From Mobula hypostoma (lineage: Eukaryota), in the NCBI RefSeq assembly GCF_963921235.1, contig NC_086097.1, forward strand, positions 66,590,001-66,654,000: a stretch of DNA of 64,000 nt. Reading direction: 5' to 3'. Position 1 is the first letter of the stretch; each line of letters opens with the position of its first letter. Shown here piece after piece: positions 3,610-62,340 of this stretch. Under the pieces are notes generated by a model. The model did not search any database, was not told the DNA's origin, and was given only the letters and a program-made list of their open reading frames with translations. A program made the position numbers and the translations under genes.

Positions 3610-5700
3610 TAGTGAGTGCAGTTTCCCTTTAAGAAAGTGAGGCTGCCAGGCTGAGCTGCAGGTAAAACTGAAACACAGTACAGGGCCCTGAGGCTCCCAC
3701 TCCATACCATCCTTCTAGTGACGAATAGTCTCTGAAAAATAAAATTGAAGACCTCAGAGCAAGATTGCAGCACCAGAGGGAAATCAGTTACTGCTGTGTA
3801 TCCTGCTTCACATGGTTGAGTCCCAGCACTGCAGACACGCCACTTCAGCCTGAAGGTTTCAGCTTCCACTTCATGGACCAGACAATGACGCAGGTAAAGG
3901 CGGATACAGCCTTTGTTTTATGATTAACTCATTGTGCTGAGGTGGCAGGTCTGCCTCCATTCTGCTTCCCTGAACTGGAGCATCTGTCAGTCAAGTGTTG
4001 TCCATTCTATCTGCCAAGGAAGTTTTCTGTTTCAACGTGGTTGCAGTATACATTCCACCCCTGGCCAACATAAAGCTGGTACAGGAGGATCTGAGCACTG
4101 TGATCAGCGTCATGAGACAGCACAGCTTGCTGCCTTTATGATCATTGCAAGGCCAGCTTGAAGGTGTCTCTGACCAACTAGCACCAACATGTCACCTGTT
4201 GAGGACACAGAGGAGCCAACACACTTGACCACTGTTACACCACCATCAAGAATGCTTACGGTGCCATCCCATTTCCACATCTTGGCTGTACTTCCACTCC
4301 AGCTACGCAGGCAGAGACTGACAACCACAGCACCAGTGGTGAGGACCATGAAGGTATGGTCATAGGAGGCTGAAAGGTGCTTACAGGGCCTCTGTATCGG
4401 TGGACAGGATTCGTCTTCAGATCTGAACGAATATGCAACATTTATCACAAACTTCATCAAAACCCATGAGGAGAAGTGTGTTCCTTCAAGAACATATACA
4501 TACCCAAACCAGAAGCTTTGGATGAACTGTGAGATTCGTAGTCTGCTGAGGGCTAAATCTGTGGTGTTTGATACTGGAGAACTCTACAAGAAGTACAGAT
4601 ATGACCTATGGAAGGCTAGCTTAAGAGCAAAATAGCAATTCCAAGTGAAATTAGAGATGAAATTGGATGGACATGAGCTATGGCAGGGTTTGCAAACCAT
4701 TAATTCCTAAAAGGTGGACCCTAATCTCACCTATGGCTGTGATGCTTTACTCCCTGATGAGCTAAACACCATTTATGCCCACTTTGAAAGGGAGAATAAA
4801 ACTATACCGGTGCAAATCCCCTTTCGTGACCTTGTGATATCTGTCCCAGAGGCCGGCATCAGAACATCTTTCAAGAGGGTGAACCCTCACAAAGCATCAG
4901 GCCCTGATGGTGTATCTGGCAGGGCATAAAAAATCTATTCCAACCAACTTGCTGGAGTGTTCAAGGACATCTTCAGTCTCTCATTGTGCTGGTTAGAGGT
5001 TCCCACTGCTTCAAAAGGGCATCAGTTACACTGGTATCCAAGAAGAGCAGGGTGAGCTGCCTCATTGACTATTGCTCAGTAGCATCACATCTACTGTGTT
5101 GAAGAGCTTTGAGACATTGGTCTTGGCTAGGATTAACTCCTGCCTAAGGAAGGACATGGGCCCATTACAATAGGTTTACAACAGATGCAATGTCTTTAGC
5201 TCTCCAATCGGCCTAGGACTACCTGTACAACAGCAGTAGTTACGCCACGCTGTCGCTTATTAATACAGATCAGCGTTCAACACCATCATCCACTCAGTAC
5301 GAATCAACAACCTTCAGAATCTGGGTCTTTGTTCCTCCCTCTGCAACTGGGTAGTTGACTTCCTCATCAGGACACCACAGTCAGTGAGGGCTGGAAATAA
5401 TATCTCCTCCTCACTGACAATCAATACTGTTACACCTCAAGGATGCGTGCTTAGCCCACTGCTCTATTCTCCCTGCACTCGTGACTGTGTGGTTAGGCAC
5501 AGCTTAAGCACCATCTATCAAAGTTGCTTGAATTTCCAGCATCTGCAGAGTTCCTGTTGTTTGTGTTTAAACACCATCTATAACTTTGCCAATGACACAA
5601 TTGCTGCTGGCAAAATTTCAGATGGTGATGAAGAGGTGTACAGAAGTTTGATAGATCTGCTTGCTGAGTGGTGTCACAACAGCAATATTGCACTCAATTT
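3610..5700 (+). mobile_element. Degenerate Rex1/Babar LINE ORF (APE + RT)
   Basis: Broken frames give LPLHTILL..SLKNKIEDLRARLQHQREI, AVYIPP, TLDHCYTTIKNAY, YPNQKLWMN, LPDELNTIYAHFE, VNPHKASGPDGVSGR, TPQGCVLSPLLYS and YNFANDT. Confidence 0.85.
5519..5571 (+). mobile_element. Penelope-like pLTR terminal tail micro-insertion
   Basis: gttgcttgaatttccagcatctgcagagttcc closely matches the reverse complement of ~35695-35728. Flanked by duplicated caccatctat (5509-5518, 5572-5581). Confidence 0.65.
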
Positions 5701-32990: not shown

Positions 32991-34618
32991 AGCCTACCCT
33001 GTAATTTTCCATTGCGGAGAAACAATTTCATTGGTTTCTTACCTGACAACTCTGAAGTATTTCTAATTACTGTGCCACTGAGCCAGGGACAGAAATGATG
33101 GATTGTCACTGAGAGAAACTGATAGGATATACCGTGGGAGCTCTGCAAGTCAAGCCAAGACAAGTGTAATATTTGCAGTGTGGTTGCTAGTGTTCACCTA
33201 GTACTTTTGTCAGGTACCCTAGGCCATTTTTTTGGTCCTTAGAGAGTTTTGTGGGCACTGTTTGTAATTCGCCAACATTTTACTTAGTACATACTTAATC
33301 TCTTCCTGCAATCAGTTGGTGAATTTAGTGTTTTATTTGTTCCAGTGTTGATTTCTCACTGTTTAACAATGATTGATCAGTTTACATTTTAAGTGAATAC
33401 GTATGCTTATTTTGTAGTATATGGTGTACTTGGAAATTTGGTGCCATTATACTCAAAAACAGCAGGCCCAACCCCAGCATTATCACTAACTGGGAACTGC
33501 CTGGTTCTGATTAGCATTGCTTCAATTCTTCAAATCCAATTCGAATCAAGACTTCAAAAAATCTAGCATAAGACATACTGCCTTTTGGTCAGGAGACGGA
33601 AAAGCGGGTAGCTAAACTGAAACTATAGAAATGCATCCCCCAGCAGTTCAGAACACTTGAATGCCTGCAATTTGGATTTTTCTAGACAAGGTGAAAAGGT
33701 CTCATTTAAAGGATACAATTAAAAGGTTTGGAATTGTTTCATGTTGGCTTCATTTGGGCATATCTCCAAACAGTTATTTAGATGTAACAGGGCAATAGTG
33801 GTTAAAGTGGCAGAACGAGGGATGAATTACATCATGTTACAAGCAATTATGCAGTAAAACCTGCTTCTGAGTAAGAAGTATATAATTTTCTCTAAATATA
33901 ATGAGAAAGTGTTCCATTCACTCTGCTGTCACCCGATCAAAAAGTGAACATAAACATTCTTAAATTCTAAGCCTGATTGCAAAAGGAGTCTGATTTATTT
34001 AAGAATCCTTTAATCAGAATATCAAATGATAGACTACATGTCTTTACTTGATTACACTTTTGATATTAATACTTAGATATCAAGGAAAGATTAAAGTGTT
34101 GCTTGATATGGATGATTTACACAATTTAGAAAGAAATCTAATTAATTGCCATGTACAGAACTTATCAAAGCTACTGATTTCCTTAGTACCAAAGCAGGCA
34201 ATCAGTGCTTAAACATACCTCATGAGAAAATAACAATGCGTCTCCCTCCACAACACGTACCTCTCCTGTGGACAGGTGGGAATCTAATTCATTCACTTTC
34301 AATAATAATTACTCACCCCTGCTCTCTTGTATTCCCTAGATGCATAGCACCAGCTAGTAATTTCTAAAGGGGTGCTCTATTTGTGTGGGAGCCATATGAG
34401 AACTAAATCTGACGTGGGAATATTTTAAGAGGGAAGGGAGCAGGTTCCAAAAAATTTGGATAATGTTGTAGAAGTACTATTAAAGGGGATGTAAAGTGAG
34501 AAAGCTGCCCTCTGTTGGCAGGAATCCAAGAGGCACTCCAAACACAAGGTCAGAAGACGGTGGGAGAAGTTGGTCGTGGAGACTGAGGCTTGTACAATTG
34601 AGATACAGTTTACAAGTA

Positions 34619-35438
34619 CAGTATACTCCAGTTAATTGGGCCATCGGTTAATCAGGGCAGCCGGTTACTTGGGACAACTCTTAAGGAACTAAAACTAATC
34701 AAGAAAATAGCCAGGATTCCCTTTGTTTATTTGCAACACTATGTCATTTAATTGGGACAGGGGACTGTTGCTGAGCAGTTTCTAACTCACATCAGTCACA
34801 TGCACGTGTGGCCATTAGGCACTATCTCGTGCTTAGAGCGAACACCTTTTTTAATAATGCCAGCTGCTTGTGTTTTGTGTTCAAAAAGCAGTTATTTTTT
34901 CCACTGATAGATAGTGAGAAATAAGCAGTAAGGCAATTCAGAACTGTTTTTCTCACTGTGGTTTCAAGCATTCAGGCTTAGAAGATGCCAGAAATAGCCA
35001 TGAGTGAAAATGAAACAATTTCAATACTCCAACAAGTTAGGAACTACAAAGAATTGTAGTTCCTGACTTGAATGTTACAATGAAAATTATAATTTGGAGG
35101 ATCCAAACATTTAAAGCATTGTACGTAGGCAGTCAATTATCTGCACTAGCTGTCTGCACTGATCTTGTCCACTCACAGTCAGTCAAAAGAACATGGCAGT
35201 GTACACTGGCTGTATTCTTCTATCTATAACTATTAGGAACTAATACAGTTTTATAGTACTATAGTAGTATTGGTAGTGTTCTAACTTGACTACATAATTT
35301 GTTACTCAGTTAAAAGGTCTTTTTTAAAAAAAAAAATCTTTTTAACTATTTCCATGAAACTTCAGCTAACTGGGTCAGCTGCTTAATTGGCCCAAAATGT
35401 ACTGGTTCCAATGTGTCCAAATTAACAAGAATCCAGAG
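34619..35438. mobile_element. Tigger/pogo-like non-autonomous DNA transposon
   Basis: TA-flanked, with diverged TIRs cagtatactccagttaattggg / ccaaattaacaagaatccagag and repeated internal ttaattggg motifs. Confidence 0.55.
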
Positions 35439-35784
35439 TACTTTAGTGTCCTCACAGTAGTAGCTACAATTAATGATAGTGTTAACAATTGTCTCACCAC
35501 ACCTTTTCTTCCAAGGAAACTACTACCTTCTGTACCCAGATATTGGAGCAATTGATTTGTTCAGAAGCTTAAAATTAGCACAATGTTTTTCAGTACTTAT
35601 TACATCACTCATGAAAACTTTTGAAAATAAAATGTGCCAAATACCCTAATCTGTATTTATTAGTCACGGTGTTGCATTTCATTTACGTAAACACGAGGAA
35701 TTCTGCAGATGCTGGAAATTCAAGCAACACACATCAAAGTTGCTGGTGAACGCAGCAGGCCAGGCAGCATCTCTAGGAAGAGGT

Positions 35785-35824
35785 ACAGTCGACGTTTCTG
35801 GCCAAGACCCTTCGTCAGGACTGT
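35785..35824 (-). ncRNA. Minimal type I hammerhead ribozyme motif (short stem III)
   Basis: Minus strand: acagtc CTGACGA agggtcttggcca GAAA CGTC gactgt. Stem I acagtc/gactgt is 6 bp; stem II has a weakened base. Confidence 0.65.
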
Positions 35825-35858
35825 CCTGACGAAGGGTCTCAGCCCGAAACGTTGACGG
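35821..35858 (+). ncRNA. Minimal type I hammerhead ribozyme motif (short stem III)
   Basis: ctgtc CTGACGA a ggg tctcag ccc GAAA CGTT gacgg. Stem I ctgtc/gacgg, stem II GGG/CCC, palindromic ACGT stem III, GUU cleavage triplet. Confidence 0.7.
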
Positions 35859-36319
35859 TACCTCTTCCTAGAGATGTTGCCTGGCCTGCTGCGTTCACCA
35901 GCAACTTTGATGTGTTGCTTGAATTTTATGCTTTGTTACAAATATATCATATTTCACAGATATTTAAATGATGGCATTTTTCCTGCCACTTCTGTACTCC
36001 TGTGGCAAAATTGCATTAACATTCTGAACATCTTACAACCTGACTTCTTCTTCTGATTGAGTATAGATCAATTTACAAGTGGGTTACAGGAATCTAACTG
36101 ATTTGAATATAAGAGCTTCCTGTAGCACAATTGCACAAAAATTCAATGATTTGATAGTCAAAACCTTTGTGATATGTCCAACATATATTTCCACATATTG
36201 ACTGGGACTCTCATACTGTAAAATGAGATGAGATAGAGTTTGTTATATGCGCAGGAATGTTTCCTAAATCAATATATAGAGGTCCCAGCTAGAGAGAGTG
36301 CAATACAGGATCTCCTATC

Positions 36320-39080
36320 AGGGAATAAAACAGGGTAATTGTGTGTAGGGAAACACTTCTGATCATAATTCTGTGAGTTTCAAGATAATTATGGAGAAAG
36401 CTAATGAGTCTCATCTGCTTAGGTTTGGAATCAGTTTTCTTCTCCTAGATTGGTTGCCAGCCAAGGCTGACGAGCCCTGCCCAGCCACCCAGGTATACCA
36501 CCAGACACTTGGTCGTGCCATGACATAGCAAACTCAGTAAGAACAGGAACGCCATGTGAAGGTGTTGCTGTGGGCACAGTAGTGTAGGAGTGGCCATACG
36601 CAAGTGGCCCCCTGCATGACAAGCCAAACAGTTGTCCTATGGCGATCACTACACCTGGAAGGGAGAGGCTACGGAAGACGCTTCACCTTCCTTAAGTGAG
36701 CAGGACGTCCGGCCCGGGATTCACCCGACATTTATGCCAGGTGGTCTGTCTAGGAGAGGGAAAGCTTCAATACTCAACCTACAGCCTTGCGGTTGCCGCA
36801 GTTGTCGCAGCTCACCATGCCATTGTGGAATGTCGCCCAGCCTAAAGTGTGGAATTGGTCCGTGCACACCAATCCACACTATAAACCTATGCAGTTCAGG
36901 TGGGGAGAAAAGTCCAACAGCGATGGAGAAGAGGCAAAACGATAGGTGTTAGATGACACAGTCTCAACTCCTCTATGGTCACCAATGATTGTGCTGTTGC
37001 TCCTAAGGACTCTTCTTCCCTCCTGATCTTCGCAAGCAAAGAACAAGCCATCATCGTCATGGAGAAGGATAGAACTAGTCCTCTGGTTGAGATTCTAAAT
37101 AGCAGAAAGGCCCGTTTTGTTAGCATCAGAAAGGATCTGGCAAGGATGGATTGGGACAGGTTGTTTTCTGGCAAAGGGATGCTTGGTAAGTGAAAGGCCT
37201 TCAAAAATAAAATTTTGAGAGTATAGAGTTTGTGTGTTCCCTGTTAGAATAAAAGGCAAGGAAAACAGGTTCAGCTTAGTTTTTGAAGAATATTAAGGCT
37301 GTGGTTAAAAAGACGATGCGTAGCAGGTTAAGACACCGAGGAACAAATGAGGTGCTTGAGGAGTACAAGAAATGCGTAAGAACACTTAAGAGGGAAATCA
37401 AGGCATGAGGTTGCTCTGGCAAAGAAGGTGAGGGAGAATCCCAAGGGATTTTACAGATGTATTAAGAACAAAAGGATACCAAAGGACAAAATTGATCCAC
37501 TTGAAGATCAGCAGGATCATCTATGCATGGAGCTGAAAGAGATGGGAGAGGATCATAAATTAATTTTTTGCTCTGTATTTACTTGGTAGACAGACAGTCA
37601 ATAGAACTTGAGAGCAGAGTAGTCATAGACCCTGTACACATTATAGAGGAGGAAGTGTTTGACAACTTGAGGCTTACTAGGGTGGATAACTCCCCAGAGC
37701 CTGGCAGGTTGTCCTCTCGGACCTTGCGGGACACAAGTTCGGAAGTTGTAGCGGCTATAGCGGAGGTATACAAAAAGTCTTTAGCCATGGGTGAGGTGCC
37801 AGAGAACTGGGAGGTGGCTAATGTTATTTTGCTGTTCAATAAAGGCTTCAAGAATATGCCTAGAAACTATAGGCTAGTGAGCCTGACATTAGTAGTGGGT
37901 AAATTATTAGAATATATTCTAAAGGACCAGATATATAAGTATTTGGATAGATGGGGCCTTATTAGGGTTAGTCAACATGGCTTTGTGCATGGTAGGCCAT
38001 ATCTAACCAATCTTATAGAGAATTAGAGTTGCATGGGAGCTTTGGTCAAGAATATTCGGTCACTTAGTGTTCAGAATGAGGTAGTAGATTGAATTCAACA
38101 TTGGCCTCTCCAGAGAAGGCAGAGAGTGGTAGTAGATGGTTACTTCTGACTGGAGGCCTGTAACTACGGTGTGCCACAGGTATTGGTGCTGGGTCTATTG
38201 TTGTTTGACTTGTATATCAACAATCTGTTTACTAATGTAGTAAACTGGATTGGCAAATTTGTGGATAACGCCAAGATTGGGGGTGTAGTGGACAGTGAAG
38301 AAGACTATCAAAGCTTGCAAAAGGATCTGGACCAGCTGGAAAAATGGACTGTAAAATGGCAGATGGAGATTAACGCAGACAAGTGTGAGGTGTTGCACTT
38401 TGGAAGGATGACCCAGGTTAGTTCTTACATGGTAAGTGGTAGGGCACTGAGGAATGTGGTAGAACAGAAGGATCTGGGAATACAGATTATTATTTCTTGC
38501 AAGTGGCATCACAGGGTTGTAAAGAAAGCTTTTGGCACATTAGCCTTAATTTGATTTGTGAAGTCTAGGGGTTGAACTGTTACATTGAAGTTGTATAAGA
38601 TGTTGGTAGGGTCAAGTTTGGAGAATTGAGTGCAATTCTGGGCAACTACCTACAGTAAATATATGAATGAGATTGAAAGAGTACAGTGAATATTTACAAG
38701 GATGTTGCCAGCACTTGAGAACTTGAGTTATAACTAAGCGTTTGAAGTACAGATATGGTAAATGCAAATAGGCTTTTTAAACTGAGGTTGGGTGAGACTA
38801 GAATGTGAGGTCATAGATTAAGGGTAAAAGGTGAACTACTTATGGGGAATCTGAGGGGGACATCATCCAGAGGGTGACGTAAGTGTGGAAGGAGGTACCG
38901 TTGGAAGTGGTGTATGCAGGTTTGATTGCAGCATTTAAGAGAAGTTTGTACAAGTATGTGGATGGGAGGGGTACGGAGGGCTTTGATCCTGGTGTTGGTC
39001 AATGAATTTAGGCAGATTTTCAGTTTAGGATAGGTCAGAATGGCTGAATGGCCTGTTTCAGTGCCGTACAGCTCTATGAT
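36320..39080 (+). mobile_element. Degenerate CR1 LINE ORF2, interrupted near its 5' end
   Basis: SDHN-like ctgatcataat at ~36360; DNSPEPG, NYRLVSLTLVVGKLLE, QHGFVHGR, PQVLVLGLLLF and KWQMEINADKCEV; 3'UTR ggctgaatggcctgtttcagtgccgtacagctctatgattct. Confidence 0.85.
36401..37058. mobile_element. RTE-derived composite non-autonomous element
   Basis: Minus-strand RTE 5'UTR motif gggctcgtcagccttggctggcaaccaatctaggagaagaaaactgattccaaacc, a plus-strand related motif gtctaggagagggaaagc..aacct, and a 3' end atcttcgcaagcaaagaacaagccatcatcgtcat. Flanked by atggagaa(a/g)g (36391, 37059). Confidence 0.55.
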
Positions 39081-39919: not shown

Positions 39920-40997
39920 CATAAAATAATTGATTGCATAGGTATTCAGCCCTTCAAGTCAGTATTTAGTAGATGCACCTTTGGCAGCAATTACAGCTTT
40001 GAGTCTGTGTCGATAGGTCTCTGTCAGCTTTGCACATCTGGATACTACAATTTTTCCCCATTCTTCTTTACAAAACTGTTCAAGCTCTGTCAGATTGCAT
40101 GGGGATTGTGAGTGAACAGTCATTTTCAAGTCCAGCCACAAATTCTCAGTTGGATTGAGGTCTGGACTCTGACTTGGGCATTCTAGGACATTGACTTTGT
40201 TGTTTTTAAGCCATTCCGGTGTAGCTTTAGCTTTATGCTTGGGGTCATTCTCTTGCTGGAAAACTAATCTCCCAAGTTGCAGATCTCTTGCAGACTGCAT
40301 CAGGTTTTCCTCCAGGATCTCCCTGTATTTCCCTTCTAACTTCACAAGCCTTCCTGGGCCTGTTGCAGTGAAGCAACCCTACAGCGTAATGCAGCCACCA
40401 AAATGCTTCATGGTAGGGACAGTGTGTTTTTGATGATGTCTGGTGTTTGGCTTATGCCAAACATAGCATTTAGTCTGATGGCCAAAAAGCTCAATTTTGG
40501 TTTCATCGAACCATAAAACCTTCCAGCTGACTTCAGAGTATCCCACATGTCTCCTAGAAAATTCTAGCTGAGCTTTCATGCAAGCTTTATTCAACAGTGG
40601 CTTTCTCTTTGCTACTCTCCCATAAAGATGCAACTGGTGAAGCACCCGGGTAACAGTTGTTGTATGGGCAGTCCCTCCCATCTCAGTCACTGAAGCTTGT
40701 AACTCCTCCAGAGTTGTCATAGATTGCTGGGTGGCCTCCCTCACTAGCCCTTTCTGGCATGATCACTCAGATTTTGAGGACGGTCTGTTCTAGGCAGATT
40801 TATTGCTCTGCCATATTCTTTCCATTTCTTAATGTTTGACTTAACTCTACTCTAGAGGATATTCAGTGATTTGGAAATGTTCTTGTATCCTCTTCCTGAC
40901 TTGTGCTGTTCAATAACCTTTTCATGGAGTTGCTAGGAGTGTTCTTTTGCCTTTATGGTGTAGTTTACGCCAGGATACTGACTCACCAGCAGTTGGA
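39920..40997 (-). mobile_element. Tc1-like transposon with frameshifted transposase pseudogene
   Basis: GRVAKRKPLL, VLWFDETKIELFG, FQQENDPKH, PSQSPDLNPTENLW and AVIAAKGASTKY in ORFs 40379-40744 and 39959-40345. Confidence 0.92.
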
Positions 40998-51249: not shown

Positions 51250-52084
51250 CATTGCGAGTTTCATGCTTAGTTGTTCAGACAAAGCTTGCAAAGCGCAGAA
51301 ATGATGGGGCTAAAATAAAATCATCGGGAACGGGTCGATGCGCTCGTATCCTGCTTAGCATGGAATCCAGAAAAAAATAATCAGAATTATTAATGACCGG
51401 CTTTGGTTCAGGTGACAGCCTAAATTTACACAGTTGGTCTGAAATAGGCTGCCGTGCAATAAATTATTCTGATTGTACAGCGCATCTTGTTTAATTGTGA
51501 GCCCGTAGATTTCCCACAGCGCTGCCTTTCTGGCATTTAACTTTTACAGTGCAGAGCCGAACGCCGGTCTATGTGCAGTGCTTAGTTATCGCGCATTGTG
51601 TGACAAGCTGTACACGTGACTCGTAATTTGCACCAATACCTGAAGAAATCGGAGAGTTGGCTTTCGCGATTGATTATTTGCCTGAAGCTGCGCTCTGCGC
51701 AGCTCTTACAAAGTCAGCTGCGCACCCACATTACGGGCATTGGATCCACCGGACGATCTCAGGTCTCCGAAAGCGGCGTTGTGCCGTGCGGCGGACAACC
51801 ACGACACCTCTAGCCGCAGTACAATAGTGAGAATTGCCTGGTTGCCATTGCTGATGTTTGCCTGTTAATCGGTGATCTGTTAGATATACAGCAGCTTGTC
51901 TGCGAGAGAAGATCGGGCATTGTCTCCAGACATTTCGCTGGAGCGTCCGACACTTGAGAAGTCGGAATGGTCGGAACGAATAAAAGCAACGAGTTCGAGG
52001 AGATGCCGTACGCATTGCAGGCGAGAAACGAGCAAGCGCGGATTTGAGAAGGAAAGCCTTTACGATAGTTTCTGAGGGTACAGT
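51250..52084 (+). promoter_or_regulatory. CpG-rich putative SSTR1 promoter/5' region
   Basis: Marked rise in CpG density relative to the preceding repeat-rich DNA; E-box CACGTG at 51613-51618. The TSS cannot be determined from sequence. Confidence 0.45.
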
Positions 52085-53179
52085 ATGTTGTCCAATGTCT
52101 CTGCCAACCCAGACGATGCCATGAACGGTGCCAATTTTACTCACAACGGGACTACAAGCGGCGCGTATAGTCGCGCTATCTTCATCTCATTCATCTACTC
52201 CGTCGTCTGCTTTGTTGGATTGTGTGGGAACTCCTTGGTCATATACGTGATCCTAAAATATGCCAAAATGAAGACGGCAACCAACATCTACATCTTGAAC
52301 CTGGCCATCGCCGACGAACTGCTGATGTTAAGCGTGCCATTCCTGGTAACATCGACCTTGCTGAACCACTGGCCCTTCGGCTCGTTGCTCTGCCGTCTGG
52401 TGCTCAGCGTGGATGCGGTCAACATGTTCACCAGCATCTACTGCCTCACTGTTCTCAGTGTGGACAGGTATATCGCGGTGGTGCACCCCATCAAAGCTGC
52501 CAGTTATAGAAGACCCACCATAGCTAAAATAGTCAACCTGGCCGTGTGGCTCCTGTCCATACTGGTCATTCTGCCCATCATTATCTTTGCAGACACGGCC
52601 CCCAACACTGACGGCTCGATCATCTGCAATATGCAGATGCCAAAGCCTGACAGACAGTGGCTTGAGGTATTCGTGGTCTACACGTTTTTAATGGGGTTTC
52701 TCATCCCCGTTGTTGCCATCTGCCTGTGCTATATTCTCATCATTGTCAAAATGAGAGTGGTTGCCCTTAAAGCTGGGTGGCAACAGCGCAAGAAGTCGGA
52801 GAGGAAGATCACCTTGATGGTGATGATGGTGGTGACCGTGTTTGTGATGTGCTGGATGCCATTTTACATAGTTCAGTTAGTGAAGATATTTCTGGGGCGA
52901 CAGAATCTGACCGTCAGCCAGCTCGTGGTCGTCTTGGGTTACGCCAACAGCTGCGCCAACCCCATTCTTTACGGCTTTCTCTCGGACAACTTCAAGCGAT
53001 CGTTCCAGAGAATCTTGTGTCTACGGTGGATGGACAATGTGGTGGAGGAACCCATAGATTACTATGCCACGGCCCTCAAAAGCAGAGCGTACAGCGTGGA
53101 AGAATTCCAGCAGGATCCACTGGAATCGGAGAGCGCCTATCGCAATGGCACGTGTACCTCAAGGACAACCACCCTCTGA
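52085..53179 (+). CDS. SSTR1: Somatostatin receptor type 1 (class A GPCR), single-exon CDS, 364 aa
   Basis: 7 TM segments with GNx[36 protein letters not shown] and the somatostatin-receptor signature [15 protein letters not shown]1-type C-tail [26 protein letters not shown]-glycosylation sequons NVS/NFT/NGT. Confidence 0.97.
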
Positions 53180-53572
53180 GGAATCGCAAAGCGGCTGAGG
53201 AGAACCCGACAAAGGTCCTGTCCTTTGGCTCGATAACTCGATTAGTGGGACAGATTTCTGCCGCTCTGTTATGTTCTCTGGTCGCATCCCCTGCCGTAAT
53301 GCTTTAGGTTGTGAAGAAATATAACTGATGTTTAATAAGGCCGCGATCTCTCGCCTATTTGAACTGTTCAGTCGCTTTTATATGCAGTATATAATATAAA
53401 ACTTCTCTCTAATTCATCTTAAGCTTAATTCAGATAAGAGCTGTCGCGTTTAAACCATGCTGGAAGCTTTGTGTTGATGTTGCCAAGATTCATTTAAACA
53501 TGTTTCTGTGTGTGGACTTCTTCAGAGTCTGCCAGTGATGTAGTATTTCAAACCTGATTGAATTAAAGTTCT

Positions 53573-54199
53573 AAGACTGGGAGACCGCTTTGCTGAACAT
53601 CTACGCTCTGTCCGCCAGAGAAAGCAGGATCTCCCAGTGGCCACACATTTTAATTCCACATCCCATTCCCATTCTGACATGTCTATCCACGGCCTCCTCT
53701 ACTGTAAAGATGAAGCCACACTCAGGTTGGAGGAACAACACCTTATATTCCGTCTGGGTAGCCTCCAACCTGATGGCATGACATCGACTTCTCTAACTTC
53801 CGCTAAGGCCCCACCTCCCCCTCGTACCCCATCTGTTACTCATTTTTATGCACACATTCTTTCTCTCACTCTCCTTTTTCTCCCTCTGTCCCTCTGAATA
53901 TACCTCTTGCCCATCCTCTGGGTCACCCCCCCCTTGTCTTTCTTCCCGGCCCTCCTGTCCCATGATCCTCTCGTATCCCCTTTTGCCTATCACCTGTCCA
54001 GCTCTCGGCTCTATCCCTCCCCCTCCTGTCTTCTCCTATCATTTTGCATCTCCCCCTCCCCCTCCAACTTTCAAATCCCTTACTCACTCTTCCTTCAGTT
54101 AGTCCTGACGAAGGGTCTCGGCCTGAAACGTCGACTGCGCCTCTTCCTATAGATGCTGCTTGGCCTGCTGCGTTCACCAGCAACTTTGATGTATGTTGC
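53573..54199 (+). mobile_element. 5'-truncated Penelope-like element (GIY-YIG C-terminus + pLTR) with 15-bp flanking duplication
   Basis: RLGDRFAEHLRSV..VATHFNSTSHSHSDMSIHGLLYCKDEATLRLEEQHLIFRLGSLQPDGM; ttgaattaaagttct repeated at 53558-53572 and 54200-54214. Confidence 0.88.
54101..54136 (+). ncRNA. Minimal type I hammerhead ribozyme motif (short stem III), core intact
   Basis: agtc CTGACGA agg gtctcgg cct GAAA CGTC gact. Stem I agtc/gact, stem II agg/cct, palindromic ACGT, GUC cleavage triplet. Confidence 0.75.
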
Positions 54200-55574
54200 T
54201 TGAATTAAAGTTCTTCCCCCATTAGTTTCTCGCCGCCTTGCTACACGATGGCCAATGACTCCCCAAAACTAGACAGAGAGGCAGTTTGTAATATTTGTTC
54301 AACTGATGCCTTGTTTCATCAAAAGAAGGACTCTTGTCTTTCATCGCCTATAAAATTATGCTCTTTAGGCAATTAACTTTTTTTTTAATGGCGCTTCTCC
54401 ATAAAAAAACTAATTGGCAAAATGAGGTTTGGTGCACAAGATCTCATTTGAACTTTAAGGCCAAATAATCCGATTTTATTACCGTTCTGCACATTAATCA
54501 AGTGGGAAGTCATTCTGGGAACATAATAACTTTGGCCCATCCAGATGGTGAGCAGTTTCGCTTTACAACTGGTCGTCCTTTGATATCCGCCCCGCCCCCA
54601 TCAGCGTTAAATACAACTCTGCACGGTCGGGACAGATTTTTAAAAATTTAGTTAGGGAAATTAATTTGCTAAGGAAATTCAATTAAAGTTGATTGCAAGT
54701 AAATTAGACACGGACTTCGAAGTAAAGAGAGCTTTATTCACGATATCGTGGGGACTAGAACTCCAAATAATAGAGCACTGCTCCTTTTATAGATGTACAA
54801 ATCGATTGCAAAAGCACAGACTGTACGATTAGCCCTGTGAATTACAAAGTTATAGCTAGGTTCACATGCAGTTCTCTTGTTATAAGCGATACCCATAGCA
54901 ACAGCCCATTTTTTAAAAAAAATCAGTCTTGTGTACAACTTTGTATAAACAGTTTGTCTCATTCCCTTGAGACTAATTCTTACAAGGTAAGTATCTGCAA
55001 GCATGGATTCTAAGATTGGATCTGCTAAAATATAAGGCCATATCTCCCACAAACTAAGCTGCAAACTGGTTTCCTTATTCAAAAACCAATATTAACCCCT
55101 GTCTATCAAAATATTTAACTCACACTATTTTCCTCCACGTTTACAATATTAAGATCTAAAACGTGTTTGGAGGACGAGTCCGTGCTTTTGTCGATACCTG
55201 ATGATTTGCGTGTGAGCGGGTGAACAAACAGAAGAATATACTGACTACATACTTTTTACCACATTGCAGCCTCAAAAAGTCAGCAGACGTGACAACTAAT
55301 GTATGGTTCGGACTGCCGATCATTTGACTGGAAAGTGATAACTCCCTCCAATGCTGCTTTCTTACTGCAAACGCCACGTATGTCCCCCCCCCCCCCCCAT
55401 TCCCTTTAGGAAGACTACTGCTGAACTAATAAATTGACAAACATCCTCCCTGAATTATTTGGCTGTGAGAAACTCTGGCCTTTGGCCGAATTCTTGCAAC
55501 GTTCCTCTAGTTAGTAAGTATGAAAAGGCACAATCAAATTCATGTTAAAATTTACTGGAGAGAATACATAATCT

Positions 55575-56762
55575 CTTTTCCCATCTCTGACACTTTTCTC
55601 CCTTTCTTTGTCTCCCATCTCTGGACGTCTTTACCAACCTTCTGATTTTTTCAGTTATCTTGACTGTACCTCTTATAGAAATGATATTCTCTGCTCTCAG
55701 TTCCTCCGTCCTCGCCACATCTGTTCTCCATTCCAGAACATCTGAGATGTCCTTTTTTTTCAAAGAACGGGGTTTCCCTTCCACCACCATCGATACTGCC
55801 CCTCACCCGCATCTTTTCCGCTTCTCGCACATCTGTCCTCACCCCATTCTCCATCCGTCACAACAGAGATGGAGTTCCACTTGTCTTACTGTCCCACCAT
55901 CTTCTGTATCTCGCACAACACGCTCCGTAATATCCGCGATCTCCAACGGATGCCATCAGAAAGCACAACACCGCCCTCCCCCCACCCCACGCTTTTCAGA
56001 GGAATCCCTGTCCACTCTTCCTTCCCCGCTTACACCTCTCCGGACACTTACCTCGCAGCGGAGCAAGTGCTACACCGGCCCCTGCACCCCTCCCCCTCCC
56101 CCTCTCCCTCTCCCTCCCCCGCTCCCTCTCCCTCTCTCTGTCGGCAGCCGGGGCTGCTGGTGCGGCCTCTTCTACATCGGCGAGACCCGACGCAGATTGG
56201 GGGACGGCTTTATGGCGCACTTTTGTTCTGCCCGCTGCTAAAGACTGAATTTTACAGTGGCCCAACTCAGTTCGACTTCCCATTCCCTCTGCTGCCATGA
56301 TGAGGCCAAACTCAGGTTGGAGGAGTACACCTCATGGTCCGTCTTGGTAGCTTGCAACCTCGCGTCATGAACATCGATTTCTTCCCATTCTGGTTACCCT
56401 CCCACTCTTACTCTCTCCTCACCTGCCCATCACCTGCTTCCTCTCTCCCTTTTTTCAGAGGTCCACTATCCTTCTTCGGCCCTTTATCACGTTCACCTAT
56501 CACCTCCCAGCTTCCTCCTTCATTCCCCTCCCCCACCCACTTACTTTCCTCCCCTCACCTGGCTCCACCCATCACCTGTCAGCTTCCCCCACCCCCACCT
56601 TCTTGTTCTGCCTTCTGCTCTCTTCTTTTCCAGTCATGATTAAGGGTCTCCGTCGAAACATTGTTTATTTCCCGCCGTCGATTCTGCCCGACCTGCTGCG
56701 TTTTCCCAGCATTCCCTGTGTGTTGCTGAAGATTACCAGCATCTGTAGAGTCTCTCGTGTTA
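55575..56762 (+). mobile_element. Degenerate Penelope-like element (RT C-terminus, GIY-YIG endonuclease, pLTR)
   Basis: SQFLR..HICS, TSEMSFFFKERGFPSTTID, GLFYIGETRRRLGD and RLGSLQPRVMNIDF; decayed hammerhead cagtcatgattaagggtctccgtcgaaac near 56631; tail ccagcatctgtagagtctctcgtgtt. Confidence 0.85.
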
Positions 56763-57828: not shown

Positions 57829-59154
57829 TCACTGTGCTACTGAAACACTTATTTCACCATTTTCCTTGGGTAAGTTAAATTCTTTTTCACTCGCTGGAGG
57901 AGTTTCCACGTAATGGTTTTCATTTGTGACATTTATGGTAGTATCCGCTGGGGCGTTTTCTTCGTCTTGGAGCGCAGAATCTACATTTTTTGTTTCTATT
58001 CGAAATGCCTCTAGTTCCGTTTTATGAGCACCTCTGTTCTCCCGCTTCATGATAATTATAACCGCAACTGCAACCAGCAGCATCAGAGCTAGTACCCCAA
58101 TAATAACTTGGTAGATCAGGAAGGGCGTGTTTGAGCGAGCCGCGCTCTCTGAGCCTCTGACACCTGAAGGAAAGGTGGTCGCGGAATTGTCAGCATAGCC
58201 GGTCAAAGGTATTGATGAAGCGGGCGCTGATACAGAGGTAGCAGGGGAAATAGTATTGGCAACTGGGATCTCAACTTTCAGGAAAGTCTCGTACGACACG
58301 TTGAAACTGGCTCGGAAGTCTGCCTCGGAAACGCATCTGTACAGATGAAGGTTGACCAAGAAACCCTTGTCACAGAAACAGAAATCCTCTTCGGCCGTCC
58401 GAAAACATCTATTTTGACAAAAGTCATTTTTTGTAATTTCCCCACAGTTGTTGCATAGAGATTCCAAGTTTCCCGAATATAACCATTTAACTTGCCCCCG
58501 CTGTAGCCCACATCTCACAGCGACTGACTTGCCATTTCTACAAGTAATGAACGCCACCGAATCTCTGGGTACACGAGGAAAGAACTGGCTTAGAGTGTGT
58601 AAAGGAAGTCTATAAGCGACTGTTCCCCTGTCAGTATTTAGGCTTTCGCACAACTGATACTTACAGATGAAACCTTCGCTACTTTTGGCGTTGCACGCTA
58701 AAGCATTCCACTTGAGTTGTATTCGTGTTGTAAAGTTTGCCACAAGTGCCACGCATCTCTCGTGAGTGCAGGTTTGCTGTGGTTCTTCAATCCAGAGGTT
58801 GTAGACCGAACTGTCATTCCCGCTGACCCATGTAAATCCTCGCAGCGGCTCTTCGGCGATATAGCACTGTTTGACCTTCTGGTGAAGTCCAATCCACAGG
58901 TAATGCAGCTGAAGCGAAGCATTCGCATTTCTTTCTAAAAGCTGCCGAATGTTCTCTGCTTCGCGCTCACTCTCCATGGAGGTAAGAACTCCCTTGTTAA
59001 CTTCACACCTCTCCTTTGCCAGGGCAAAGGGAACTCCATCCCAGTGCAAACTGTAACAGGTCCCACCGTTGCAAAACTTTTGTGTTTGGGAGAGAACACC
59101 AGACTTTTCCAAGTAGTTCTGGAGCCAAAGCAAAACGAAGAACAAACGAAGCAT
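57829..59154 (-). CDS. CLEC14A: C-type lectin domain family 14 member A-like type I membrane protein (group XIV CTLD), single-exon CDS, 441 aa from first ATG
   Basis: Signal peptide MLRLFFVLLWL; CTLD with CYSLH, LWIGLH..C...PLRGFTWV and EEP..TC...RCVAL..W....C...GFICKY; sushi-like region (VAYRLP..P..SVAFITC); one EGF (CQNRC..CFCDKGF..C); S/T/P-rich stalk; TM. Convergent with SSTR1 as in mammals. A single EGF argues against THBD, CD93 or CD248. Confidence 0.85.
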   Translation of the reverse strand: MLRLFFVLLWLQNYLEKSGVLSQTQKFCNGGTCYSLHWDGVPFALAKERCEVNKGVLTSMESEREAENIRQLLERNANASLQLHYLWIGLHQKVKQCYIAEEPLRGFTWVSGNDSSVYNLWIEEPQQTCTHERCVALVANFTTRIQLKWNALACNAKSSEGFICKYQLCESLNTDRGTVAYRLPLHTLSQFFPRVPRDSVAFITCRNGKSVAVRCGLQRGQVKWLYSGNLESLCNNCGEITKNDFCQNRCFRTAEEDFCFCDKGFLVNLHLYRCVSEADFRASFNVSYETFLKVEIPVANTISPATSVSAPASSIPLTGYADNSATTFPSGVRGSESAARSNTPFLIYQVIIGVLALMLLVAVAVIIIMKRENRGAHKTELEAFRIETKNVDSALQDEENAPADTTINVTNENHYVETPPASEKEFNLPKENGEISVSVAQ

Positions 59155-59189
59155 GTCAGCTGTCCCCGAAGGTGTTTGCTTTCTCAAAT

Positions 59190-59345
59190 CCAAAGTTTAT
59201 AAAATAGTTAGCTTTGACTACACTTGATGTGCACTTCCGCTGGTCGCAGATCTAACTGAAGTACTCCCCAGCTCCGAGGGGAAATCTGACAAACGCAGTT
59301 CAAATTGTATATCCGGTGACTTGAAGGCAGGAAATAGGAACTTTT
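59190..59345 (-). promoter_or_regulatory. Putative CLEC14A core promoter
   Basis: TATAAA on minus at 59196-59201, about 42 nt upstream of the ATG. ETS cores: CGGAAGT (minus, 59233-59239), CAGGAAAT (59328) and TAGGAACT (59335). Confidence 0.5.
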
Positions 59346-60811: not shown

Positions 60812-62340
60812 ATCAAAGTTAAAATTAAATTTATTATCAAAGTACATATGTCACCATATACAACCATAAGGTTCATTTTCTTGAGGGCATACTGAAAAAA
60901 TCCATAATAGAATAATAACCATAATAGAATCAATGAAGGACGACACCAACTTGGGCATTCACCTAGTATGCCAAAAACAACAAACTGGGCAACAACAAAA
61001 AGAAAAAAATAATAATGAATAAGCTATACATATGGAGAACATGAAATGAAGGGTCCTTAAAAGTGAGTCCATAGGTTGTGGGAACACTTCAATGATGGGG
61101 CAAGTGAAGTTATCACCTTTGATTCAAGAACTTGATGGTTGAGGGGTAATAACTGTTCCTGAACCTAGTGGTGTGAGTCCTGAGGTACTTACTCCTGATG
61201 GCAATAGCGAGAAGAGAGGATGGCCAGGGTGGTAGGAATCCCTGATGATGGATGCTGCTTTCCTGTGACAATGCTTTGTGTAGATGTGCTCAATGGTGTG
61301 GAGGGCTTTACCCCTGATGGACTGGGCCGTATCCACTACTTTTTGTAGGATTTTCCATTCAAGGGCAGTGGTGTTTCCATGAGGCTGTGATGCAGCCAGT
61401 CAACATACTGTCCACGAAACATCTATAGAAGTTTCTCAAAATTTCAGATGTCATGCCAAATCTTCGCAAACTCTTAAGGAAGTAGTGGCGCTGCCGTGCT
61501 TTCTTTGAAATTGCACTTAAATGCTGGGCCCAGGACAAATCCTCTGAAATGATAACACAGAGGAATTTAAAGTTTTGATTCCTCTCCATTTCTGATCCTC
61601 CAATGAGGAACACCTCATGTACCTCTGGTTTCCTCCTCCTGAATCTCCTTGGTCTTGCTGACTTTGAGTAAAAGGTTGTTGCTGTAGCACCACTCAGCCA
61701 GATTTTCAGTCCCCCCTCCCATATGCTGATTCATCACCAATTCGGTCTATGACGTGGTGTCATCAGCAACCTCAATATGGCATTGGGGCTGTGGTTAGCC
61801 ACACAGTCATAAAAGTAAAGTGAGTAGAGCAGGGGGCTAAACACCCAGCCTTGTGGTGCACTCTTGCTGATGGAGGTTGTGGTGGAGATGTTGCCGATCC
61901 GAACTAACTGGGGTCTGCAAGGGAGGAAATTGTGGATCCAGTTGCACAAGGAGGTACTGAGACTAAGGTCTTAAAGTTTATTGATTAGATTTGAGGGGAC
62001 GATGGTATTGTAATCAATATAGAGCATCCTGATGTATTCATCTTTGCTGTCCAGATGTTCCAGGGCTGATTGAATAGCCAATGAGATGGCATCTGCTGTA
62101 GACCCATTGTGCCTCTATGCAAATTGGAGTAGATCCAAGTTGCTTCTCAGGCAGGACTTGAGATGTTTAATTACCAACCTCACAAAACACTTCATCACTG
62201 TAGATGTAAGTGCTACCTGATAATAGTCATTGAAGCCGGTTACTACATTCTTCTTAGGCAGCGGTGTAAGTGAGGCCTGCTTGAAGACAGTGGGTATGAC
62301 AGACTGCCAAAGGGAGAGGTTAACAATCTCAGTGAATACT
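60812..62340 (-). mobile_element. Rex1/Babar LINE 3' fragment
   Basis: [48 protein letters not shown] and KAASIIRDSYHPGHPLFSLLPSG. Confidence 0.85.

Follow-up and report, generated by a model that had tools for sequence, protein, structure and literature searches.

A hammerhead-bearing palindrome in Mobula hypostoma as a probable head-to-head insertion of a Penelope-like element

The window, i.e. the whole 64,000-nucleotide stretch of DNA analysed here (Mobula hypostoma, assembly GCF_963921235.1, contig NC_086097.1, positions 66,590,001 to 66,654,000 of the forward strand), was scanned with Pfam in 150 of its 156 long stop-to-stop frames. The scan returned transposon fragments, a G protein-coupled receptor (GPCR), a C-type lectin and a short ALKBH8_N match (61362-61730, minus strand, E 4.7e-9) that may be an exon or repeat-derived. 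The receptor and the lectin resemble SSTR1 and CLEC14A, which adjoin in mammals. Within 15 kb of the palindrome studied here, Pfam found only transposon fragments in the long frames, a search that short exons escape; Tc1/mariner-type transposase fragments (DDE_3 and HTH_Tnp_Tc3_2; Pfam) lie on the minus strand at 39962-40762. The features of interest are listed below. Element coordinates are counted from 0 at C3 of the hammerhead core.

35670-35684, plus strand: target DNA resembling the untailed end of the element, its last 4 bp (35681-35684) repeated at 35923-35926 (empty-site join and flanks)
35685-35926, no strand assigned: single insertion of 242 bp in which two pLTR ends of a Penelope-like element (PLE), each 5'-truncated, stand head to head, its boundaries ambiguous by the 4-bp duplication (empty site in related organisms C and D; arms match the PLE reference)
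35685-35822, minus strand: tailed arm, element -4 to about +133 (blastn against a natural copy encoding reverse transcriptase (RT), 94.8%, -4 to 129 at 35822-35689)
35685-35715, minus strand: PLE tail, in the tailed arm only, likely the stretch between two RT start sites (sequence; 3'-end classes; PMC11167929)
35823-35926, plus strand: untailed arm, element -3 to about +102, in which 2 nt are deleted (blastn, 90.6%)
35821-35858, plus strand: minimal type I hammerhead motif, GUU triplet, no monomer stem III (sequence, pattern match; predicted cut after 35853)
35785-35824, minus strand: minimal type I hammerhead motif, GUC triplet, closing pair of stem II broken (sequence; predicted cut between 35791 and 35790)
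52076-53179, plus strand: single-frame 7tm_1 receptor (GPCR) gene (Pfam)
53574-54206, plus strand: untailed sister solo copy with GIY-YIG C-terminus, 3' region and intact hammerhead motif (matches the reference copy at 98.1%)
57829-59196, minus strand: single-frame C-type lectin gene (Pfam)

The original prediction described a palindrome of ~210 bp with a 1-nt centre, and this is real: arms of 93 nt each (35729-35821 and 35823-35915) are 94% complementary around a centre at 35822, and an outer complementary block (35716-35731 with 35911-35926) is reached across a 2-nt indel. The two ~105-bp arms are thus complementary as described, whereas their symmetry does not hold, since the left arm runs on for ~30 nt past the palindrome, to 35685, and this extension is the PLE tail. 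The long hairpin expected of a transcript is borne out by the predicted RNA fold (-199.5 kcal/mol, z = -24.9, none of 200 shuffles equally stable), and a read-through transcript, if made, is predicted to sequester the sense motif in a hairpin of ~105 bp. In four presumed RNA runs the palindrome is covered only by short repeat-derived pieces, with no unique flank junction spanned among the matches listed, which speaks neither for nor against transcription of the locus. A separate small inverted repeat, with 17-nt arms and 4 nt between them, lies within another repeat at 35033-35070.

Pattern matching found the predicted back-to-back hammerhead motifs, one per strand, and a single further match in the window, at 54105 (chance mean 0.00). 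The plus-strand motif reads CUGUC-CUGACGA-A-GGGU(CUCA)GCCC-GAAAC-GUU followed, after the predicted cut, by GACGG; the minus-strand motif reads ACAGUC-CUGACGA-A-GGGU(CUUG)GCCA-GAAAC-GUC followed by GACUGU. Stem III of both is only the palindrome ACGU, as originally stated. The predicted layout holds on both strands as far as the core is concerned, but in the minus motif a G10.1·A11.1 mismatch (35799) stands where a pair should close stem II. The plus motif has G10.1-C11.1 at this place and the family often has G·U: among 180 arm columns position 11.1 is T in 110, C in 66 and A in 3, so that many members carry G10.1·U11.1. The proposal that the centre completes stem I is correct only in that the centre adds or replaces 1-2 pairs; the stem is otherwise largely native to the element, as seen from AGUC/GACU in the intact copy at 54097-54142.

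A scan of 33000-39000 with Rfam covariance models, a check that had been proposed for the motifs, gave no hammerhead family at E<=10, only sub-threshold matches to miRNA-like hairpins. The motifs were therefore read by eye against the published description of minimal metazoan PLE hammerheads (PMC4209133), which they fit, as had been claimed. Both strands carry the CUGANGA and GAAA core, a UH triplet, an extra base after position 9 and palindromic 15.2-16.2. As in the published motifs, the core is type I, the extra base lies between 9 and 10.1, stem I has 4-5 bp and the palindromic 15.2-16.2 takes the place of a stem III. Dual motifs on opposite strands, 100-700 bp apart, are also reported in PMC4209133; by contrast, the cores of the palindrome are just 7 nt apart, stem II has 4 bp, many family members carry G10.1·U11.1 and the minus motif carries G·A. 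The minimum-free-energy (MFE) structure of the monomer is not a hammerhead, and monomers are predicted to misfold; the cofold of two motifs retains stem I, and its MFE structure is not a dimeric hammerhead. Minimal PLE hammerheads are described as dimer-dependent (PMC4209133; review PMC6765202, with PMC5785218 among its references), and by analogy the motifs here, which had been called dimer-type, are predicted to cleave as dimers only.

Both arms match the pLTR of a Neptune-type PLE by blastn to an RT-coding copy (94.8% and 90.6%), which confirms the pLTR origin that had been suggested. The family is large: one 32-mer of the arm has 44,054 exact matches in the 3.48-Gb genome. Translations of the longer copies L199 and L124/L133 contain a GIY-YIG domain (E 5.5e-5) and an RVT_1 domain whose match (E 9e-7) falls slightly short of the curated cut-off, in the order RT, C-x3-C-x2-C linker, GIY-YIG, upstream of the pLTR. 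A Zn-finger-like cysteine motif between RT and endonuclease is common to Neptune and Nematis (PMC8557442); the linker, taken by itself, points to one of these two clades for the family. L199 is a partial tandem: a copy of -317 to +130 precedes a ~3.45-kb unit that closes with this repeat again. The family thus shows features of endonuclease-bearing (EN+) PLEs, namely: RT with a C-terminal GIY-YIG, partial tandem pLTRs, a 30-40-bp tail at one end, inverted 5'-truncated copies, and target duplication with an empty site.

The window holds other PLE sequences. The sister solo copy is flanked by a 15-bp duplication (53558-53572 and 54200-54214) and includes GIY-YIG C-terminal residues at 53571-53810, an 80-aa piece for which a Pfam search gave no match. 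This copy, with its intact sense hammerhead motif, follows the GPCR stop codon on the same strand at a distance of ~400 bp and may lie in the 3' UTR of that gene. A 41-bp piece of the family, little beyond the tail (+90 to +130, 97.6%), is found on the plus strand at 5523-5563, and a related PLE open reading frame (ORF) survives in older, diverged fragments (67-80%) on the plus strand at 55670-56382.

One contig each of the related organisms C and D, whose flanks are ~92-95% identical, joins 35680 directly to 35923, so the palindrome is one 242-bp insertion with a 4-bp duplication. The left junction of the insertion is present in organisms A and B. Duplications in the family are typically 11-17 bp, and the clean 4 bp found here are likely the residue of a staggered cut of ~15 nt; their shortness may reflect the resemblance of the target 15-mer to the untailed end of the element.

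In order to place the locus within its family without bias for the centre, we took the first 100 of the 44,054 listed 32-mer places, which gave 92 anchored insertions. It should be noted that this sample is confined to the first 5.5 Mb of a single contig and, owing to the exact 32-mer required, favours young copies. Head-to-head pairs make up 38 of the 92 insertions, or about 40% (39 were called, and one, L069, was spurious and dropped), which agrees with the original mention of inverted pLTRs. An 11-17-bp target duplication surrounds the whole pair in 29 of the 39 called pairs. Arm lengths span 50 bp to 1.9 kb without a break, and junctions lie anywhere between positions beyond -1000 and +82; the 242-bp palindrome is the short end of this continuum of inverted pairs. 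The ORF-less layout with no spacer had been read as the mark of a distinct element. The same layout occurs with RT- or endonuclease-coding arms, in spacer-less palindromes of 3.9 kb (L135:2673-6574, 95% between arms) and 2.3 kb (L138:2592-4925, 98% between arms). In these two, long perfect inverted repeats persist in the genome.

Counting only gaps of 0-11 nt between cores, we found both cores head to head at 732 loci. The centre of the palindrome, aggac-w-gtcct (exact 29-nt match), recurs at only 37 of these, a count that had been proposed as a check on a shared origin. Centres are heterogeneous, with 31 kinds among the first 50 of the 732 listed loci; varied centres had been named beforehand as a sign of independent integration by-products. 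Fifteen same-centre loci, the palindrome included, comprise five haplotypes, one of them a divergent family (L045). Both arms share a haplotype in all 15, outer ends differ between loci, and the orientation of the centre is T in 9, A in 5 and unset in 1. A centre found in five haplotypes and in both orientations must have arisen repeatedly, and its recurrence is explained by where arms end: 33 of 130 arm 5' ends fall at -10 to -1 (3.3 per base), compared with 1.3 per base at 0 to +9 and 0.5-0.7 at -20 to -11 and +10 to +29. No fixed centre, fixed ends or single lineage emerges, and the proposed propagating hairpin-ribozyme element is not upheld. This 5'-end hotspot coincides with TCAGTT at element -10 to -5 (54094-54099 in the window), at the end of a polypyrimidine tract; we take TCAGTT to be initiator-like. 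The stretch also resembles a splice acceptor. A spliced upstream exon was considered as the source of the hotspot and rejected, as solos ending there adjoin unrelated flanks or their own duplication, with no common exon.

Arm 3' ends fall into two classes, at about +80-105 and +120-144, and pairs combine them by a strict rule. Among 130 distinct pairs (26 of them retrieved with a tailed query), 112 have one tailed and one untailed arm, 14 a tailed and a short arm, 2 an untailed and a short arm, and 2 are borderline untailed pairs; none has two tails. The unbiased subset of 37 pairs divides into 33 tailed/untailed and 4 tailed/short. Solo insertions are tailed in 28 cases and untailed in 26, so independent choice would give ~25% double-tailed pairs. 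Partner arms agree at subfamily sites (110/112, 108/111, 105/113, 99/105 and 93/103, vs. 0.52-0.77 when shuffled) and do not agree at two CpG-decay sites, which indicates one template followed by independent decay; private variants are common to both arms at 16 of 253 rare-variant positions. The junction positions of partners are also correlated (Spearman 0.65) and lie within 10 nt of each other in 15 of 38 pairs, vs. 8.0 shuffled (p = 0.0004).

The two hammerheads appear to be passengers, because the pLTR always carries one. Non-CpG substitutions amount to 9/500 in the core vs. 59/4072 elsewhere in the arm, with no sign of selection on the core. A footprint of cleavage in vivo was sought at element +28, the predicted cut. 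There, 521 arms have their 5' end, compared with 192 at +29, 169 at +30 and 158 at +31, and with 85 at +26 and 81 at +27, two counts that need an intact CpG. The 49 sampled +28 loci are 38 pairs, 6 solos and 5 substitutions or indels in longer copies, and GAC/GACT microhomology was scored in 17 of the pairs and read by eye in about 8 others. At +29, solos number 5 of 17 once one of the first 18 listed loci, itself partner arm to a +28 locus, is set aside; at +31 they number 3 of 20. Scaled up, these samples give ~64, 56 and 24 solos at +28, +29 and +31. We thus rejected the footprint: the approximately threefold peak is mostly due to microhomology, part of which comes from stem I itself, and a small real excess may remain.

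Taken together, the palindrome is best explained as one insertion of a Neptune-type PLE, with two 5'-truncated pLTR ends head to head that likely arose from both target strands priming on one RNA (probability roughly 0.88). That it is a by-product of one insertion event and not a self-spreading element is very probable; twin priming as the formation step is inferred from the family statistics and somewhat favoured. In this mechanism, a staggered cut would let both target strands prime cDNA on the same RNA, one at the distal RT start site (about +130) giving the tailed arm, the other at the proximal site (about +95) giving the untailed arm. Both cDNAs would extend towards the 5' end of the RNA, often halting 1-10 nt upstream of the hammerhead core, and their ends would then be end-joined head to head, often through 2-4 nt of microhomology. 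The PLE protein of the green anole, from a Poseidon-clade rather than a Neptune-type element, is a predicted dimer that cuts both strands and extends them, using two RT start sites on either side of the tail; the hammerhead is dispensable for insertion in vitro (PMC11167929). We give even odds to a stricter version, in which a dimeric RT-endonuclease sits on both start sites of one RNA and extends both target strands, the cell end-joins the two same-polarity cDNAs, and self-priming is replaced as the origin of PLE palindromes. Such a model would explain in a single step why pLTRs are inverted, why the tail is one-sided and why junctions correlate, and if it is true the -10 to -1 hotspot marks the 5' end of the RNA beside the initiator-like TCAGTT.

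Fold-back copying or gene conversion would likewise be compatible with the correlated junctions and the private variants common to both arms. Under fold-back, the first cDNA would prime its own second strand, or self-prime on an antisense template, with later deletions at the centre randomising the junction; head-to-head palindromes of rotifer PLEs were read as self-priming (PMC3846280). Symmetric junctions, including -319/-328 and -1043/-1059, and the frequent joins through stem-I microhomology GAC(T) (17 of 49 sampled) suit this reading. However, an untailed arm offers no template for a tail, and in 17 of 33 pairs it is nevertheless the arm that extends further 5', against 8 pairs for the tailed arm; simple fold-back copying cannot yield such pairs. 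Solos without a tail equal those with one in frequency, and some carry their own long duplications. About +95 therefore acts like a start site, and fold-back needs an extra deletion for each such solo and each untailed-longer pair. We thus regard fold-back as unlikely. A non-autonomous hairpin-ribozyme element spreading as a unit would agree with the exact centre common to 37 loci, the short, ORF-less, duplication-flanked pairs and the 97% identity over about 230 bp of the most similar copies. It is highly improbable given the same 37 among 732 near-centre pairs, the variety of centres, haplotypes, orientations and outer ends, and arm lengths that are continuous up to 1.9 kb; in its hairpin transcript the RT start sites would presumably be buried too.

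Two independent insertions, the second into the first in opposite orientation, are hardly credible. PLEs are indeed prone to land within or next to earlier copies (review PMC6765202), and the arms at the locus differ at 6 of 88 positions and by an indel, but in 29 of 39 cases a single duplication encloses both arms, partner arms agree in subfamily, no pair is double-tailed and the empty site lacks both arms. Use of the locus by the host, as a hairpin RNA (endo-siRNA or ADAR substrate) or a ribozyme switch, would draw on the very stable predicted hairpin and on the likely thousands of such loci, a number extrapolated from the 32-mer count and the share of pairs. The orthologous site is nevertheless empty in two relatives, arms and cores decay at background rate across the family and one of the two motifs is damaged, and this reading is very improbable too. 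The locus is ordinary, and inverted PLE insertions of its kind likely number many thousands.

Among PLEs, the combination of inverted pLTRs and a tail on one side has been described before (PMC3846280, PMC8557442; also PMC8969392 and bioRxiv 10.64898/2026.07.22.740005). As in the EN+ PLEs of PMC3846280 and PMC8557442, a 5'-truncated inverted copy is joined directly at the 5' end with a palindromic junction, a tail of 30-40 bp is found at one end and a target duplication encloses the unit; here, in contrast, both arms are too short to retain an ORF. The Mobula family has duplications of 11-17 bp vs. 8-10 bp in the rotifer examples of these two sources, which give the tail as optional or often one-ended in the parts accessible, whereas the present analysis counts the one-tail rule and the sharing of template. 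In PAc, the Poseidon element of the green anole (PMC11167929), a hammerhead likewise lies shortly upstream of two RT start sites bracketing the tail, with both target strands cut and extended as proposed for the Mobula family, which differs in its Neptune/Nematis-type cysteine linker.

In L1 twin priming, both target strands prime and an inversion results within one target duplication, an arrangement that the pairs share and that L106 and L121 resemble. The inverted part of L1 is a different, upstream stretch, whereas both PLE arms usually repeat the same pLTR. A literature search combining Penelope-like, twin priming and inverted found nothing relevant in a field that left most subscription papers outside. 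Non-LTR retrozymes (bioRxiv 10.64898/2026.07.22.740005) are also ORF-less, PLE-derived and equipped with a type I hammerhead, but they are same-strand tandems of at least two units; the palindrome, an inverted pair with one motif per strand and no same-strand tandem units, was therefore rejected as a retrozyme. The L040, L153 and L160 junctions do contain the hammerhead region copied again in short tandem units of 30-55 nt, like seeds of retrozyme-like same-strand arrays.

The locus has a described PLE layout, and the useful addition is the family statistics on the integration mechanism. The origin of the inverted repeats and one-sided tails of PLEs is still called unresolved in PMC8557442. 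The Mobula family gives countable rules that separate twin priming from self-priming, namely: never two tails, the same template, correlated junctions and 11-17-bp duplications, and the two mechanisms are testable with the existing in vitro PLE system. For Mobula hypostoma itself, the pairs mean a genome that contains many near-perfect hairpins, 100 bp to 2 kb in length, which could be a source of double-stranded RNA if transcribed.
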